This document shows positions 1,262-20,269 of a stretch of 40,466 nucleotides of DNA, piece by piece. The position numbers were made by a program, and so were the translations under genes. The number at the start of each line of letters is the position of its first letter. Within the stretch, counting starts at the first letter, position 1. This DNA is from a virus. Taxonomy: Duplodnaviria; Caudoviricetes. The stretch covers positions 1 to 40,466 of the IMG/VR virus record IMGVR_UViG_3300031260_000012; one strand, 5' to 3'. The notes below the pieces were generated by a model that ran no database searches, was not told where the DNA came from, and was given only the letters and a program-made list of their open reading frames with translations.

Positions 1262-1493
1262 TCTTCAATTCCTCCCTTACAATCTCCCTGATATAATCAG
1301 CCATATCATCATATTCTTTCTGCTGCATCCTTTTGTCATATCCCTCTTTTCTTTTAATCCATTCCTCAAATGCTACAAACCCGAAAACATGCCTATGCTT
1401 CATGTCTTTTATGTACGGCATAGCCCGCTTCATCATGCTTTCCGGTACGTCAAATTGTATCCTGACGCTTTTCTCTTCGCTCTCGATACACAA
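1254..1493 (-). CDS. Hypothetical protein (79 aa)
   Basis: GGAGG at 1502-1506 before TTG; overlaps start of next gene. Confidence 0.7.
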   Translation of the reverse strand: MCIESEEKSVRIQFDVPESMMKRAMPYIKDMKHRHVFGFVAFEEWIKRKEGYDKRMQQKEYDDMADYIREIVREELKNE

Positions 1494-1559
1494 GACATCA
1501 ACCTCCTTGTTATCATCGAAACCCAGTACTATTTAGTACTACTGATAGTGATAATAGAT

Positions 1560-1576
1560 GGGGGCATAAAGCCCCC
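1560..1576. terminator. Hairpin downstream of recT
   Basis: GGGGGC-ATAAA-GCCCCC; no strong U tail. Confidence 0.4.
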
Positions 1577-1588
1577 GTATGCTATTCC

Positions 1589-2404
1589 TTAGAATATCTC
1601 CGGCTGCTCTTCTTCCTTCTCTTCTTTCGGCGGCGCGGCAACAGGCTTTTCCTCTGTCTTGCCGGTTTTCGCTTTCAGCTTTTCTTTGACAGTCTCGGCG
1701 GTCGATTCTTTCGGCGTTACGTCCCGGGTCTGCTCCGTCATATCGTAAAACTGATCGTCTCGCATAATTACCCGCTCAATATCGGTACTCATGGGCAGGC
1801 GCTTTGCAAGTCTGCGTGTTACGGTTTTCTTTGCCATCTCTTCCCACCATTGCGACCAGGGGCCATTGTTCTTTGCCTTGGAGACGTTACGTACCTTCTC
1901 AATTTCCCGGACTGTCATCACTTCGAGATACTTCCCGCCGTCTTTTGTCCTGGCCATTGCATAGACTGCTTTTACCTTATCGCTGTCATTTTCAAGATTC
2001 GGGATGTGTTTAAAGTGCGGCCCTTCCTCGTCGTTCCAATATTCAAACTTATCGCCGTCATAGACTACGTTTGCCATGATGCTTTCCAATTCCCCGGACT
2101 GCCTGATCTTCTTGTGCACCCCTGCTATCATCGGCATGTATGCAGCCTGATCGCCGAACTTTACAAGAGCAGCCTCCCTGCCGTCGGGAATAAGTCCGTC
2201 TTGTGCGCAATCCAATACTGACTGCAGGAGACTATCCCGGTTTACCCGCAGTAGGTCCGGGTACTTCTGAACGGCCATGACCGTGATGCGCATGAACTTC
2301 TCTTTTGTCACGTGATCTGGTAGCAAGCTCTCGATCTTGCGGCTATACGCTGCAATCTGATGCTCAAACTGAGCCACCGGTGACAATGCTTTTTCTTCTG
2401 CCAT
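1589..2404 (-). CDS. recT: RecT-family single-strand annealing protein
   Basis: LLPDHVTKEKFMR, CAQDGLIPDGREAALV, ANVVYDGDKF, GPWSQWWEEMAKKTVTRRLAKRLPMS motifs; start moved to ATG 2404 (AAGGAG at 2413-2418). Confidence 0.93.
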   Translation of the reverse strand: MAEEKALSPVAQFEHQIAAYSRKIESLLPDHVTKEKFMRITVMAVQKYPDLLRVNRDSLLQSVLDCAQDGLIPDGREAALVKFGDQAAYMPMIAGVHKKIRQSGELESIMANVVYDGDKFEYWNDEEGPHFKHIPNLENDSDKVKAVYAMARTKDGGKYLEVMTVREIEKVRNVSKAKNNGPWSQWWEEMAKKTVTRRLAKRLPMSTDIERVIMRDDQFYDMTEQTRDVTPKESTAETVKEKLKAKTGKTEEKPVAAPPKEEKEEEQPEIF

Positions 2405-3587: not shown

Positions 3588-3662
3588 TTCCCCGCGCCGG
3601 ACTTGAACCGGCAGACCGCGCCGGGCCGCTTTACGCGTCTCATCGCCTGCGGATACGGGGGA
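3588..3662 (-). ncRNA. Degenerate tRNA-sized element with intact T-arm
   Basis: GCCGG-TTCAAGT-CCGGC T-arm; partial acceptor-like pairing TCCCC/GGGGA; D and anticodon arms not canonical; overlaps the VRR-NUC 3' end. Confidence 0.35.
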
Positions 3663-3951
3663 TGATCTTTTCCACTTCTTCTACACTGCGAACCGTGTAT
3701 ACCTTCTGTAAGTGCATATTCAGGACAGCGTGCATATCGTCCTGTTCTGCCGATGTTTTCCCGTCGCTTGTTTTTATTTCAAGCCATACCTGGTACCCAT
3801 GGCGTATACACAAAAGATCAGGCGTACCGGCAGGCGCAAGGCGGATATGCCGGTTCCCCTTGCGCACTGTCCCGGCGTTCATGCGGAAAACAAGAAAGCC
3901 GTTAATCTGTAGGAATTCTATGATCTGTTTTTGTATTTCTGATTCAAGCAT
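3640..3951 (-). CDS. VRR-NUC domain nuclease
   Basis: ESEIQKQI...GTPDLL...LEIKT...SAEQ...VRSVEEV pattern. Confidence 0.9.
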   Translation of the reverse strand: MLESEIQKQIIEFLQINGFLVFRMNAGTVRKGNRHIRLAPAGTPDLLCIRHGYQVWLEIKTSDGKTSAEQDDMHAVLNMHLQKVYTVRSVEEVEKIIPRIRRR

Positions 3952-4061
3952 TTTACCTCTAAAATAATGCCGGGGCGATAATTCCCGGCTGCACGGCTAT
4001 TACTACTGTTGCCCTGAGCAACGCAGCAGGGCCTTGACCGTAGCCAACAGCAAACGGTTTA

Positions 4062-4218
4062 TGGAACCGGCAGGATTCGAACCTGCATGACAGCAGTACC
4101 GTCTTTATGCGCTGCTCCACATAGAGACTGGTGTGTAGATTGTCACGTCTACTTTACGGGGTTAACCTGATAGGCATATAGTCCCCGGCGTCTACCATTT
4201 TTATTCCGCCACGGTTCC
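4062..4218 (-). ncRNA. 157-nt tRNA-like RNA with expanded, pseudoknot-capable middle domain
   Basis: Perfect 7-bp acceptor GGAACCG/CGGTTCC plus discriminator A; Leu-type D arm GCGGAA..GGTAGACGC; T arm GCAGG-TTCGAAT-CCTGC; ~100 nt between D and T arms with no canonical 7-nt anticodon loop. Confidence 0.75.
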
Positions 4219-4283
4219 AAATTGCCCCTGATTCCCCGGGGCCGGTAGGGGGAAAACTGGGAACCCCCATTGTATGCCAACCG

Positions 4284-4397
4284 TCAACGACGGAGTAAGG
4301 CCTCACTTGCGCGTTTCGACCAATAGTAGGCCGACACCATGTTACCATTACGGCGGAAGATTTCCGCAAGGCTTGAATAGATTATGTAGGTTTTCAT
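4284..4397 (-). CDS. Small peptide (37 aa) MKTYIIYSSLAEIFRRNGNMVSAYYWSKRASEALLRR
   Basis: Directly follows a promoter and AAGGAG RBS; below ORF-track length cutoff. Confidence 0.65.
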   Translation of the reverse strand: MKTYIIYSSLAEIFRRNGNMVSAYYWSKRASEALLRR

Positions 4398-4423: not shown

Positions 4424-4452
4424 ATAGTATTACATTGTAGTATAACTGTCAA
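4424..4452 (-). promoter_or_regulatory. Sigma70-type promoter for peptide + RNA cluster with TACAATGTAATA box
   Basis: TTGACA-17 nt-TACTAT. Confidence 0.8.
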
Positions 4453-4589
4453 CTATTATCTTCATCTTTTTTTATTTTTTTCGGCCTTCCGCCTTTTTTG
4501 CCGTTTTCCCTGGAAGCGGCTTTTTTTGCTTCTGATTTTGATTTCCCGCCGAGCCTTCCAAGCTCCTGCGCTGCTTGATTCTTTGACAT
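4449..4589 (-). CDS. Small basic protein (46 aa) with GRLGG/ENGKKGGRP motifs, possibly DNA-binding
   Basis: MSKNQAAQELGRLGGKSKSEAKKAASRENGKKGGRPKKIKKDEDNS*, AAGGAG RBS; not in ORF track. Confidence 0.75.
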   Translation of the reverse strand: MSKNQAAQELGRLGGKSKSEAKKAASRENGKKGGRPKKIKKDEDNS

Positions 4590-8351: not shown

Positions 8352-8539
8352 TGCGAAAAGGTAAGCCTTGCAAATTATGCGGTGCGGTTAATTGCGGAAT
8401 GGAATGTGAAGAGGGTACCGGGCCGATTGGCACGCACGGACGGAAAGAAACAATACTAAGGTGGCCCGAGATTATGGCACAGGTAGAAAAAAACATGAAA
8501 AATCAAGGGCGCGAAGGTGCGCACAACAAGAGGTGGTAA
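8351..8539 (+). CDS. Hypothetical Cys-containing protein
   Basis: GGAGG RBS, CKLCG..C..C. Confidence 0.65.
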   Translation: MRKGKPCKLCGAVNCGMECEEGTGPIGTHGRKETILRWPEIMAQVEKNMKNQGREGAHNKRW

Positions 8540-8540
8540 G

Positions 8541-11201
8541 ATGGGGCAGCAGATGAGTTACATTGATTTTCTGAAAAGCAAAATGACAATAGCACCAGAA
8601 ACGGGATTCGACATCGACCCGGGAGAGGTCAATCCGGTACTTATGCCGCACCAGCGGGACAGCGTAGTATGGGCAGTCAAGGGCGGACGGCGCGCATTGT
8701 TTCAGTCTTTCGGTCTTGGTAAAACTATCCAGCAGATTGAAATACTTCGGCTGATTTTAAAGCGCATGGGCGGGAAAGCTCTTATCATTGCACCCCTGGA
8801 AGTCAGACACGAGTTTATCCGTGACGGGAAAAATCTATTGCAAATGGATATTCGCTACGTAAAGACGGCGGCAGAGTGTGAAGCAGCAGGCGACGGTATT
8901 TTAATTACAAACTATGAGCGGGTCCGCGACGGCGACATTGACCCGAACTATTTCATAGCCTGTTCCTTGGATGAGGCGTCAGTATTACGCGGATACGGGA
9001 CAAAGACCTATCAGACGTTCCTCACAAAGTTTGAGCGGGTACGATTCAAATTTGTGGCAACGGCGACGCCATCCCCGAACAAATATAAAGAGCTGATCCA
9101 TTACGCCGGATACCTGGGGATCATGGATACCGGGCAGGCGCTGACCCGCTTCTTTCACAGAGATTCTACGCAGGCGAACAATCTCACACTGTATCCGCAC
9201 AAGGAAGAAGAATTCTGGCTTTGGATGTCGACCTGGGCCCTGTTTATCACGAAGCCTTCAGACCTGGGATATGATGATACCGGCTACGATCTGCCGCCTC
9301 TGCAACTGATAGAGCATGAGGTCGGAGTCGATCATTCCACCGCCGGCGTTGAGGATGATGGACAAGCTAAAATGTTCCGCGATGCTGCAATCGGATTGAA
9401 AGATGCAAGCCGTGAGAAGCGGGAAAGTATCGGGGCGCGTGTCGCTAAAATGAAGGAGATAATAGACGCGGATCCTGATAGCTCGTACATAATCTGGCAC
9501 GACCTGGAAGATGAGCGGAAGGCCATAAAAAAGGCTCTACCTGAATCAAAATGGATTTACGGGAGTCAGAACGAGGAAGAGAGGGCGCAGAATAGCATAG
9601 ATTTTGCAGAGGGCAGAATACAGTACCTTTCCACAAAGCCCCGTATATCTGGCTCAGGCTGTAACTTCCAGCGGCACTGTCACAAGGCTATTTACCTGGG
9701 GATAGGGTACAAGTTTAACGACTTTGTTCAATCAGTCCACCGCATCTATCGTTTCCTACAGACCGAACAGGTAGAAATCCACGTAATTTATTCAGAATCC
9801 GAACACTCAATATATCAGACTCTTATGGGGAAATGGGATAAGCACAAGCACCTGGTCGATCAAATGACGGCGATTGTCAGGGAGCATGGGCTTAATTCTA
9901 CAGATGCAATCGAAAAGCTGGAACGCTCTATTTGGAGTAGCACGGCAACCGAGAAGGGTAAAAACTGGACGGCGGTAAACTCGGATAATGTCATCGAACT
10001 TTTGAAAATGGAAGATGAAAGTATCGATCTTATTCATACGTCAATCCCATTTTCTAATCATTACGAGTACACGCCTACTTACAACGATTTCGGCCACAAT
10101 GTCGATAATGATGCTTTTTTCGAACAGATGGATTATTTGACGCCGGAGCTTATGCGAGTGTTGAAGCCTGGGAGAGTAGCGGCAATCCATGTCAAGGATC
10201 GTATCTTATTTGGAAATGCTACCGGTACCGGAATGCCGACTCTTGACCCGTTCAGCGATCTTACAACCATGCACATGATAAAACATGGTTTTCAATATTT
10301 TGGAAGAATTACAGTTGTAACCGATGTTGTAAGGGAGAACAATCAGACTTACCGACTCGGCTGGACAGAGCAAACAAAAGACGGTACCAAGATGGGCGTA
10401 GGATGTCCAGAGTATATATTACTTTTTCGTAAGCTTCCCACCGACACAAGCCGGGCTTATGCTGATGAGCCAGTTGTGAAAAATAAGTTTAGGGAATACA
10501 AAAATGTATGTGGTAATTGTGGAGAAGTATTCGACAAAGAAATTAAGTTTAAAAAGGATGATGATTTTCCAGATCTTGAAATATGCCCGAACTGCGGAAG
10601 CCTGGGAAAAATTGAAAAGATCTATAAGGAGAATGACGTTGACTTTTACCCACGGTCTCGCTGGCAGATCGATGCTCACGCATTCTGGAGATCATCCGGT
10701 GACAGGTTACTTACCAGCAAAGAGTTAGCGCAAGTATCTGTCTCAGACTTACAGTCAGTCTATCGCAATCAATCACGACAAGAAGTTTATGATTACAAAA
10801 AACATGTAGATCTTGCCGCAGAATTAGAAGAGAGAAAAAAGCTGCCGGCATCTTTCATGGTAGTAGCCCCTGGATCATGGCATCCTTTCGTATGGGATGA
10901 TATAAACCGAATGCGTACCCTGAACGGCGAACAGGCGCGCAAGGAATTGGAGATGCATATCTGCCCGCTCCAGTTTGATATTGTGGAGCGAATAATCAAC
11001 CGCTTTTCAAACAAGGGCGAGACGGTCCTTGACCCTTTCGGTGGTCTTATGACTGTACCATACATGGCAGTTAAGATGGGCCGAAAGGGATACGGCATAG
11101 AGCTTAATTCTATGAGCTGGAAGGATGGTATTTCATATTTGAAAGCGGCAGAGCTTGAGTATAATCATCCCACGCTTTTTGATCTTGAGGGGGTAGTGTG
11201 A
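8541..11201 (+). CDS. SNF2-like helicase / N4-N6 DNA methyltransferase fusion
   Basis: GLGKT, LDEAS, TATP, SVHRIYRF helicase motifs; HTSIPF catalytic-type motif, HICPLQ and VLDPFGGLMT SAM motif; internal CGNCG..CPNCG insert. Confidence 0.9.
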   Translation: MGQQMSYIDFLKSKMTIAPETGFDIDPGEVNPVLMPHQRDSVVWAVKGGRRALFQSFGLGKTIQQIEILRLILKRMGGKALIIAPLEVRHEFIRDGKNLLQMDIRYVKTAAECEAAGDGILITNYERVRDGDIDPNYFIACSLDEASVLRGYGTKTYQTFLTKFERVRFKFVATATPSPNKYKELIHYAGYLGIMDTGQALTRFFHRDSTQANNLTLYPHKEEEFWLWMSTWALFITKPSDLGYDDTGYDLPPLQLIEHEVGVDHSTAGVEDDGQAKMFRDAAIGLKDASREKRESIGARVAKMKEIIDADPDSSYIIWHDLEDERKAIKKALPESKWIYGSQNEEERAQNSIDFAEGRIQYLSTKPRISGSGCNFQRHCHKAIYLGIGYKFNDFVQSVHRIYRFLQTEQVEIHVIYSESEHSIYQTLMGKWDKHKHLVDQMTAIVREHGLNSTDAIEKLERSIWSSTATEKGKNWTAVNSDNVIELLKMEDESIDLIHTSIPFSNHYEYTPTYNDFGHNVDNDAFFEQMDYLTPELMRVLKPGRVAAIHVKDRILFGNATGTGMPTLDPFSDLTTMHMIKHGFQYFGRITVVTDVVRENNQTYRLGWTEQTKDGTKMGVGCPEYILLFRKLPTDTSRAYADEPVVKNKFREYKNVCGNCGEVFDKEIKFKKDDDFPDLEICPNCGSLGKIEKIYKENDVDFYPRSRWQIDAHAFWRSSGDRLLTSKELAQVSVSDLQSVYRNQSRQEVYDYKKHVDLAAELEERKKLPASFMVVAPGSWHPFVWDDINRMRTLNGEQARKELEMHICPLQFDIVERIINRFSNKGETVLDPFGGLMTVPYMAVKMGRKGYGIELNSMSWKDGISYLKAAELEYNHPTLFDLEGVV

Positions 11202-13701: not shown

Positions 13702-14097
13702 ATGATTGAAGTCTGGAAAGATATCCATGGGTATGAAGGTTTATATAGAGTTTCTAATATTGGAAGGGTTAAAAGCTTAGACAGGGTTGTTACTGATAAA
13801 AACGGTAGAGACGTTCCGTGGAAGGGGAAAATCCTACGCCTCCGGGTTGGGGCAAAGGGATATATCTATGTGTGCTTGAGTAAAGATTGCACGACCAAAC
13901 AGCACAGAGTACACAGGCTCGTTGCAAAAGCTTTTATCCAAAATGTTAATAACAAGAAACAGATAAACCATATCGATGGGAAGAAAAATAATAATAAAGC
14001 GACAAACCTTGAATGGTGTACCTGTAAAGAAAACATAAGACACGCATTTATTACAGGTTTGAATACTGGTAGAAATGCAACAAAGAGGAGTGCTTGA
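13702..14097 (+). CDS. NUMOD4-HNH endonuclease
   Basis: EVWKDIHGYEGLYRVSN.GRVKS; VHRLVA; INHIDG.K.NN...NLEW. Confidence 0.92.
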   Translation: MIEVWKDIHGYEGLYRVSNIGRVKSLDRVVTDKNGRDVPWKGKILRLRVGAKGYIYVCLSKDCTTKQHRVHRLVAKAFIQNVNNKKQINHIDGKKNNNKATNLEWCTCKENIRHAFITGLNTGRNATKRSA

Positions 14098-14099
14098 AA

Positions 14100-14411
14100 A
14101 TGGCTGAATTACTACCGTGCCCGTTTTGTGGCGGGGATGCTAAATTAGGGGAAAACTTTGGAAGAATGGCCGTCAACTGTACATGGTGTGAAGCGTCTTT
14201 ACGCAGCAACGAAGTTTGCGGTGATGGGTCTGATGTGGTCGAGAGGTGGAACACCCGCAACGATGAGGCCGCCCGACAAGAAGAGCGGGATAGATGTGCC
14301 GATTATATTCAATTACAAGCTCAAGCGTATAGAACCGGGACTCCATTAGGAGACAAGCTTTACAAATTAGCAAAATCCATCCGCGACATGGAGGATGATA
14401 AGAAATGCTGA
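14100..14411 (+). CDS. Lar-family restriction alleviation-like Zn-finger protein
   Basis: ELLPCPFCGG...CTWC...WNTR. Confidence 0.75.
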   Translation: MAELLPCPFCGGDAKLGENFGRMAVNCTWCEASLRSNEVCGDGSDVVERWNTRNDEAARQEERDRCADYIQLQAQAYRTGTPLGDKLYKLAKSIRDMEDDKKC

Positions 14412-19717: not shown

Positions 19718-20269
19718 ATGAAAGTAGCAGTATTATGTGAATATAGCGGAATCGTTCGGGACGCTTTTATCAAACAAGGGCACAATGCAATTAGTTGCGA
19801 TATTCTTCCGACAGAATCAGATGGTCCTCACATTCAAGGTAATTTATTTGATTATGACTGGAGCGGTTACGATCTTATAATAGCGCATCCTCCGTGTACT
19901 TATATCGCAGTTTCTGGAAACCGTTATTATGCAGGAACAGAAAAGCGAAAAAAGGCTGCCGAGTTTATTCGCATGATATGGGATATTCCAGTTGATAAAA
20001 TGTGCATAGAAAACCCTGTAGGGCAAATAAACAAGTATTTACCTTTTATGCCAAAACCGCAGTATATACAGCCTTGGCAATTTGGACATGGGGAAACTAA
20101 AAAAACAGGATTATGGAAAAGGGGGCTACCTGATCTTATGCCTACAAATATTGTAGAAGGTAGGGAACAAAGAATATGGAAAATGCCGCCGTCTAAAGAT
20201 CGCGGAAAAATAAGGTCACGTTTTTATGAAGGAATTGCAGAAGCTATGGCTATTCAGTGGACCACTTGA
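19718..20269 (+). CDS. Short DNA cytosine methyltransferase-like protein
   Basis: CEYSG, SCDI, HPPCT catalytic, IENP motifs. Confidence 0.75.
   Translation: MKVAVLCEYSGIVRDAFIKQGHNAISCDILPTESDGPHIQGNLFDYDWSGYDLIIAHPPCTYIAVSGNRYYAGTEKRKKAAEFIRMIWDIPVDKMCIENPVGQINKYLPFMPKPQYIQPWQFGHGETKKTGLWKRGLPDLMPTNIVEGREQRIWKMPPSKDRGKIRSRFYEGIAEAMAIQWTT

Follow-up and report, generated by a model that had tools for sequence, protein, structure and literature searches.

The closest natural precedent for the RNA described here is species 1 RNA of phage T4 (rnaC, NC_000866.4 positions 70908-71046, annotated at 139 nt). In the available text of the sources, RNAC and its companion RNAD are stable RNAs without an assigned role (PMC9697503, PMC3014915), and RNAC is reported to be expressed late (PMC12685909). 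A man-made counterpart is the tRNA scaffold of Ponchon and Dardel, in which the acceptor, D and T arms are kept and cargo replaces the anticodon arm; such constructs are reported to be processed and stable in E. coli (PMC3753655). Among the bacterial Y RNAs, one YrlA with a 7-pair acceptor is described as being cut by RNase P and receiving CCA (PMC4201824). Allo-tRNAs and other irregular tRNAs have been reported from bacteria and phages, and some of them are said not to be used in translation (Mukai et al., PMC5389517). The interrupted tRNA genes of Lak phages, as far as the examples displayed go, keep both strands of the anticodon stem, and a single excision gives back the tRNA (Devoto et al. 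2019, PMC6784885).

Surveys of viral RNA come near the class treated here. Among 10,006 viral motifs, Fremin et al. list five candidates described as tRNA-like (PMC10690425), and the supplements of that work may hold members of the family described below. The accessible part of a 2026 preprint on intergenic clustering mentions no tRNA-like families (10.64898/2026.10.21.760802). A literature search, outside whose reach most subscription papers lie, returned no description of a class with a leucine-type tRNA shell and a variable insert, and the RNA is apparently an undescribed, widespread variant of the tRNA mimic.

The window, meaning the whole stretch of 40,466 nucleotides analysed, is a complete phage genome on a single contig with a 141-base terminal repeat. 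Contractile-tail and head genes lie on the plus strand, and a leftward block carries small genes, an endonuclease, a RecE-like exonuclease and RecT. No integrase was found among the 55 proteins scanned, and ARAGORN calls no ordinary tRNA or tmRNA gene anywhere in the 40-kb genome. One gene matches DUF261, presumably a spirochaete family and as such a weak hint on the host. The genome also encodes a 46-residue basic ORF with repeated KGG motifs and no family match (4449-4589, minus strand), an 894-residue helicase fused to a DNA methyltransferase (8517-11201, plus strand), a second methyltransferase (19718-20269) and a Lar-like protein (14094-14411). The features of the locus are as follows, in the direction of the minus strand.

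4424 to 4452, minus strand: nearest sigma-70-type promoter consensus, TTGACA-17-TACTAT (10/12), covered by the related contig of runs X4 and X5
4284 to 4397, minus strand: 37-codon ORF lying between the promoter and the RNA, preceded by an AAGGAG ribosome-binding-site-like sequence; no match in PHROG or Pfam
4219 to 4283, minus strand: 5' leader, nearly unchanged in relatives with other alleles of the RNA
4062 to 4218, minus strand: whole tRNA-shell RNA gene, 157 nt, from G1 to discriminator A73
4212 to 4218, minus strand: acceptor 5' strand, 7/7 Watson-Crick pairs with 4069-4063, pair probability 0.66-1.0
4188 to 4211, minus strand: U8, G9 and the Leu-type D arm (A14, A15, G18G19, A20a), the D arm proper being 4209-4188
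4157 to 4187, minus strand: insert hairpin 1 at the anticodon-arm position, with a 5-pair G-C stem, a 21-nt loop and an inner 4-pair stem
4135 to 4152, minus strand: insert hairpin 2, 5 pairs and an 8-nt loop, pair probabilities 0.76-0.80
4101 to 4128, minus strand: insert hairpin 3, with a 6-nt loop on a stem of 10 pairs (one of them a wobble) and one C-A mismatch, probabilities 0.93-1.0
4088 to 4096, minus strand: 3' linker whose sequence is complementary to two loops, those of hairpins 3 and 2 (candidate pseudoknots), or alternatively to 4153-4149 (nested)
4087, minus strand: U48, predicted partner of A15 (Levitt pair); U in 61/61 insert types of the family
4070 to 4086, minus strand: T arm, 5-pair stem and UUCGAAU loop
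4062 to 4069, minus strand: acceptor 3' strand and discriminator A73
3640 to 3951, minus strand: endonuclease / Holliday junction resolvase-like gene (phrog_93, phrog_5702), downstream of the tRNA-shell RNA
3589 to 3660, minus strand: second, minimal tRNA-like element of about 70 nt, with a 6-pair acceptor-like stem, a perfect T arm and then an A

As read from the sequence, 4218-4062 is a real RNA gene that keeps the tRNA elbow and does not decode. A preliminary description of this DNA had reported a perfect acceptor, a Leu-type D arm, a T arm and no CCA end, and all of these are present on the minus strand, with UAA following the discriminator A at 4062. The three hairpins it proposed for the insert are likewise recovered by folding. 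The fold of the whole RNA has a z-score of -2.74, equalled by 1 of 200 shuffles, and the full shell occurs in 0 of 400 Markov-simulated genomes. The insert comprises 101 bases without a 7-nt anticodon loop and has no source elsewhere in the genome (best match 11 bases). No single deletion within the gene restores a tRNA, as compared with 41 of 200 shuffled middles for which one can. The D loop is irregular in carrying five extra A's, which make the D arm the longest, and the only one of that length, among 99 family sequences. ARAGORN calls no gene here and Rfam gives no match at curated cut-offs; the weak matches below cut-off (tmRNA, YrlA, mascRNA) rest on the T arm and acceptor.

Set against tRNA-Leu (RF00005), the RNA has the 7-pair acceptor, the D arm and the T arm, and lacks the 5-pair anticodon stem with its 7-nt loop. 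E. coli LeuRS is reported to need A73, A15-U48, G18G19 and A20a and neither the anticodon nor the variable arm (PMC9976931), in agreement with the earlier statement that the enzyme reads the elbow and A73. All of these determinants, as defined by the E. coli rules, are present in the window's RNA. A group I intron was considered and set aside: Rfam returns no intron match at E values up to 10, and an insert of 101 nt is, as had been noted, too short for one. Similarity to tmRNA (RF00023) lies in the acceptor and T arm that close a long pseudoknotted middle; the score, however, is 12.7 bits against a cut-off of 47, only two stems match and ARAGORN calls no tmRNA. The window's RNA differs from tmRNA in having a D stem, A3-U70 instead of G3-U70 and less than half the length, so the earlier exclusion of tmRNA holds; G3-U70 is found in 1 of 57 core types of the family.

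YrlA (RF02553) similarly joins a tRNA elbow with a Levitt pair to another module, but its T arm precedes its D arm whereas the window's RNA has D before T; the match scores 21 bits against 69, and Ro60 is not among the PHROG hits of the 55 proteins. With the allo-tRNAs the RNA shares a non-standard tRNA shape occurring in phages and bacteria, and it departs from them in its 7/5 branch, Leu D arm and lack of an anticodon (allo-tRNAs have 8/4 or 9/3 branches, a Sec-like D arm and an anticodon). The resemblance to the Lak-phage tRNA 'introns' is that of oversized phage tRNA-like genes that surface as intron calls; in contrast to those, the gene in the window cannot be restored by one excision, and 4 of 61 family types are of the Lak kind. 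T4 species 1 RNA is a phage RNA of similar size with a canonical T arm, acceptor-like pairing of its ends and a large structured middle. It has no Leu-type D-arm motif, though, forms 5 of 7 end pairs by our reading, and stands in a tRNA cluster whereas the window's gene stands alone among early genes; homology between the two was rejected since only the T loop is shared. The engineered scaffold, in its published form, is man-made, based on tRNA-Lys3 and fitted with a single hairpin, while the RNA in the window is natural and Leu-type, with both the anticodon arm and the variable region replaced; the comparison is one of how the molecules would work.

The preliminary description had further proposed that the linker following hairpin 3 is complementary to the loops of two hairpins, giving a double pseudoknot. 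Nine Watson-Crick pairs are indeed available to 4096-4088, in which 4096-4092 would pair with 4116-4112 in the loop of hairpin 3 and 4091-4088 with 4145-4142 in that of hairpin 2. Shuffling reached this number in 5 of 4000 cases for the whole insert and in 56 of 20000 for the linker only (nominal p 0.001-0.003), a statistic that was defined after the complementarity had been seen and in a family with hundreds of members. The last linker-loop pair of the original proposal does not stand, as it takes U4087; this base corresponds to tRNA position 48, and A15 is its most likely partner. Moreover, U4092 is claimed by both candidate knots, and when the insert is folded alone CUGCU pairs with AGUAG (4153-4149) in a nested helix rather than with a loop. 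The nested alternatives differ from the three-hairpin form by 0.8-2.9 kcal/mol, and the z-score of the insert's own fold is only -1.4. From A-helix geometry, the full 11-pair hairpin 3 would leave 4 bases to span the stem, sterically a tight fit if the stem does not open in its lower part. The fold of the window's insert is without covariation support because no homolog of it was found in IMG/VR, the JGI metagenomes, GTDB or the GenBank phages.

As a trait of the class, the double pseudoknot is not borne out. Of 53 insert types, 11 have a match of 4 or more pairs between a loop and the linker, where shuffling gives 10.3 +/- 3.7; matches of 5 or more pairs are found in 2, against 2.0 expected. 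The double case occurs once, against 0.17 in shuffles. Only a slight excess is seen when the last 12 insert bases are paired with the rest of the insert (5.2 pairs versus 4.6 shuffled, with 36 of 54 above their own null). Taken for the window's RNA alone, formation of at least one of the two candidate knots is somewhat favoured, and joint formation of both is doubtful; the double pseudoknot is unproven, a fair hypothesis and not a result.

The RNA had also been credited with its own upstream promoter, which could not be confirmed. The nearest consensus lies 206 bases away, none is found directly upstream, and the 37-codon ORF intervenes. The promoter at 4452-4424 is likely to drive the operon, and the RNA would therefore need to be cut from a longer transcript. 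The leader folds no better than its shuffles. Downstream, between the RNA and the endonuclease gene, two further hairpins (4031-3990 and 3984-3964, minus strand) lie in a stretch that is nearly identical in related contigs; the fold of 4065-3960 has a z-score of -2.0.

Comparison with related sequencing runs provided direct views of other alleles at this site. Contigs of runs X4 and X5, from two studies, match 4397-4216 and 4084-4027, that is the flanks together with the T-loop end, and carry 145 other letters in place of 131, for a predicted RNA of 171 nt. The first 30 of those 145 letters are common to X2 and X4. In X7 and X12 a third sequence runs from 4216 onward, of which only the 5' end is seen. 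By eye, neither the second nor the third allele has the Leu D-arm motif, and each can form a small stem-loop at the D-arm position. The window's insert was seen in none of the seven DNA runs with cover that were compared (the cover of X14 stops short of the gene). The boundary at 4218-4216 is common to relatives with different alleles, and at least two other sequences start at the same base of the locus, which is good evidence that the slot is exchanged. That the shared leader stops exactly at the first bases of the RNA supports both 4218 as the 5' end and an exchangeable slot. Since the other alleles differ in the D arm as well, the whole RNA and not the insert alone may be the unit that is swapped.

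The surrounding region is a hotspot of small module exchange: related contigs have 223 letters inserted before the 37-codon ORF (window 4398) and 125 letters replacing 16 before the endonuclease gene (3952-3967). Pattern searches found no further copies, with 0 matches for the insert-specific pattern in IMG/VR, 0 for the leader patterns in IMG/VR and the JGI metagenomes, and 0 for the downstream pattern in metagenomes. Six matches to the leader patterns in GTDB were all unrelated by blastn. Among GenBank phages blastn gave short T-arm matches only, with no record covering more than 13% of the query. Searches with the neighbouring proteins returned 26 distant nucleases at 39-56% identity and, in another search, 1 distant match; two records whose capsids are 98-99% identical are fragments that do not include this stretch of the genome.

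The window's gene belongs to a large set of phage loci. A pattern requiring a Leu D arm followed after 85-115 bases by a T loop matched at least 120 loci in IMG/VR, from an estimated 490 stretches, and two further patterns added 6 and 70 loci. A detector that demands at least 6 acceptor pairs, from whose scan loci L121-L153 lay outside, gave 174 hits and 121 unique sequences. Setting aside 21 canonical tRNA-Leu genes and one sequence with a short middle left 99 non-canonical sequences in 61 insert clusters, and removal of four restorable Leu(UAA) genes left 57 core types. Inserts were clustered at 66% identity, near the shuffle level of 0.63, and a few of the 61 clusters may therefore be wrongly joined. 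Of the 120 loci taken from the first pattern, 62 are represented among the unique sequences; the remainder includes duplicates, and many of the non-represented loci inspected are adjacent pairs of ordinary tRNAs.

The same detector finds the window's gene and 56 other insert types, all with a Leu D arm, a paired acceptor, U48 and a T arm. The core types measure 93-184 nt, have no anticodon loop, cannot be restored by one deletion and include 1 that encodes ACCA. U48 is present in all insert types, including 47/47 where the search pattern left it free and 57/57 core types. Forty-six different acceptor 5' strands occur among the 61 types, and 58 of the 61 are fully paired in a set selected for at least 6 pairs. 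A73 is found in 47 of 61 types and is absent from 14 of the 57 core types. Because the search pattern prescribed the D-arm motif, conservation of that motif is not independent evidence. The shell thus appears, on this comparison, to be under RNA-level selection, with varied acceptor strands kept paired and U48 universal.

The inserts behave differently. The best similarity of the window's insert to any other is 0.64, against 0.63 for shuffled copies, so that it is unrelated to them and, judged by its sequence, unique among the members compared. A single acceptor strand occurs on 13 insert clusters, and a single insert is found behind four different acceptor strands. Within a 14-sequence subfamily compensatory pairs occur at 3 insert positions. 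In a 7-sequence subfamily one pseudoknot pair appears as A-U, U-A and G-C, while the two pairs flanking it are broken in 3 of 7; this covariation is drawn from few, related sequences and includes only one varying pseudoknot pair. Across 54 inserts the median fold z-score is -0.86, with 10 of 54 below -2. It had been laid down in advance that unconserved inserts in homologs would speak for a decayed tRNA. Across the family the inserts are indeed unconserved, but inside subfamilies they show compensatory changes, and inserts that are unrelated across the family yet keep their structure within subfamilies point to exchangeable cargo rather than decay.

Thirty of the 61 types have no ordinary tRNA or other T-loop motif in a flank of up to 1 kb, and 21 have a tRNA neighbour. 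The earlier suggestion of a possibly undescribed phage ncRNA class agrees with the absence of an Rfam family of its own, both in the scan of the window and in that of 40 family loci, for which Rfam returned only generic tRNA matches and one unrelated int-alpA. Several variants were encountered in the survey. The four interrupted tRNA-Leu(UAA) genes (L002, L043, L062 and L076, about 1490-1645) hold inserts of 52-68 bases in the anticodon loop, all encode ACCA and each is restored by one deletion; two of their inserts are themselves tRNA-shaped with an ACCA end of their own. The 3' ends of the 57 core types are often A-C-N-A where N is not C (ACAA 11, ACTA 7, ACGA 4, against ACCA 1), which may reflect a decayed CCA or avoidance of C75. 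Four 184-nt members (L008, L086, L089 and L097) have a second D-arm-like and T-arm-like motif in the insert, a shell within a shell. Small arrays are formed in L185, L026, L009 and L049, where several different members lie within 3 kb per contig (three in L185). In a related phage (G010), L251 carries at about 1478-1610 (minus strand) an oversized tRNA shell with a non-Leu D arm and an insert of about 70 bases, directly behind a TTGACA promoter and missed by ARAGORN; from this case the family may extend beyond Leu shells.

The reading that we favour, at roughly even confidence, is that the tRNA half is a natural scaffold, cut out of a transcript and protected as a tRNA would be, and that the insert would act on a host factor. 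Transcription would start at 4452-4424 within the leftward operon. RNase P would cut before G4218, and 3' trimming and CCA addition would follow to yield a stable RNA of about 160 nt, by analogy with what is reported of engineered scaffolds (PMC3753655) and of one YrlA (PMC4201824). Charging with leucine would be possible by E. coli identity rules, without decoding. The weakest steps come next: the insert would adopt a compact aptamer-like fold, its 3' linker probably tied back into one or both loops; it would, in a purely conjectural step, bind a host protein, most likely one involved in defence or translation stress, and disable it; and the payload would be swapped by recombination as hosts change. 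The anatomy of shell and insert, the phage-wide family and the exchange at the locus (three alleles, compared at the 5' end) are observed. Folds conserved within subfamilies, inserts unrelated between them and exchange in an early region together fit a payload under diversifying selection. Against the scaffold stand the weak z-score of the window's insert and the five extra A's of its D loop, which could be early decay.

The strongest competitor, which we regard as unlikely though not negligible, makes the shell the working part: a decoy for enzymes that read the acceptor, CCA or elbow (defence nucleases, LeuRS, EF-Tu), with an insert that only blocks decoding. Only the shell is shared by every one of the 57 insert types, the window's RNA retains the four determinants of E. 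coli LeuRS, and tRNAs are common targets of defence, with Cas12a3 reported to cut mimics of the acceptor stem and tail (PMC12851939, PMC12409363). Yet A73 is missing in 14 of 57 types, acceptor sequences vary freely, and the two other alleles at the locus are without the Leu D-arm motif. A filler would not need 40-130 bases with compensatory changes, and the counter-defence tRNAs in the available part of the literature are decoding replacements (PMC12409363), a role impossible for the window's RNA.

Improbable is a processing signal, in which RNase P cuts at the shell would punctuate or control the operon jointly with the minimal element at 3660-3589. The position of the RNA inside an operon with no promoter directly before it would suit such a role, as would a second acceptor-plus-T-arm element 400 bases downstream. 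That element, found in 0 of 400 simulated genomes, lacks a clear D arm or anticodon arm, shares sequence with the final codons of the endonuclease gene, ends just before a promoter at 3582-3555, has a fold z-score of 0.07 and gives no Rfam hit; any link to the main RNA would be conjectural. A signal has no need of a 100-base insert, the allele exchange would be left without reason, and 21 of 61 types lie beside ordinary tRNA genes. Least probable, by a little, is a functionless tRNA-Leu that has decayed or been interrupted, for instance by an intron or a nested tRNA, or that survives as the relic of an attachment site. For it speak the start of hairpin 1, which resembles that of a tRNA-Leu anticodon arm (GGGGA-CU), the irregular D loop, the intron-tRNA calls that ARAGORN makes for 50 of 61 types when introns are allowed, and the 4 of 61 types that are true interrupted tRNA-Leu(UAA) genes. 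Against it, no single excision restores an anticodon arm in the window's gene, whose acceptor and T stems are both perfect, and the anticodons that ARAGORN assigns across the family belong to many different amino acids. The genome has neither an ordinary tRNA gene nor an integrase among the 55 proteins scanned.

A bolder form of the scaffold reading, put forward tentatively, would make the family a tRNA-scaffold display system: a constant tRNA half presenting hypervariable, aptamer-like and often pseudoknotted effectors that are cassette-exchanged at fixed slots and disable host defences, with the window's gene as a doubly knotted cassette and T4 species 1 RNA as a distant case. Standard annotation misses the Leu-shell genes (ARAGORN finds 3 of 61 types) or gives them arbitrary anticodons (50 of 61, as intron tRNAs), and tRNA counts of phages can be distorted. 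Direct evidence that alleles are exchanged at a single site comes from the locus in the window. Should the insert prove to be the active part, phage RNAs in their hundreds would make up a natural collection of compact folds with targets in the host, and the role of T4 RNAC and RNAD would gain a testable frame.
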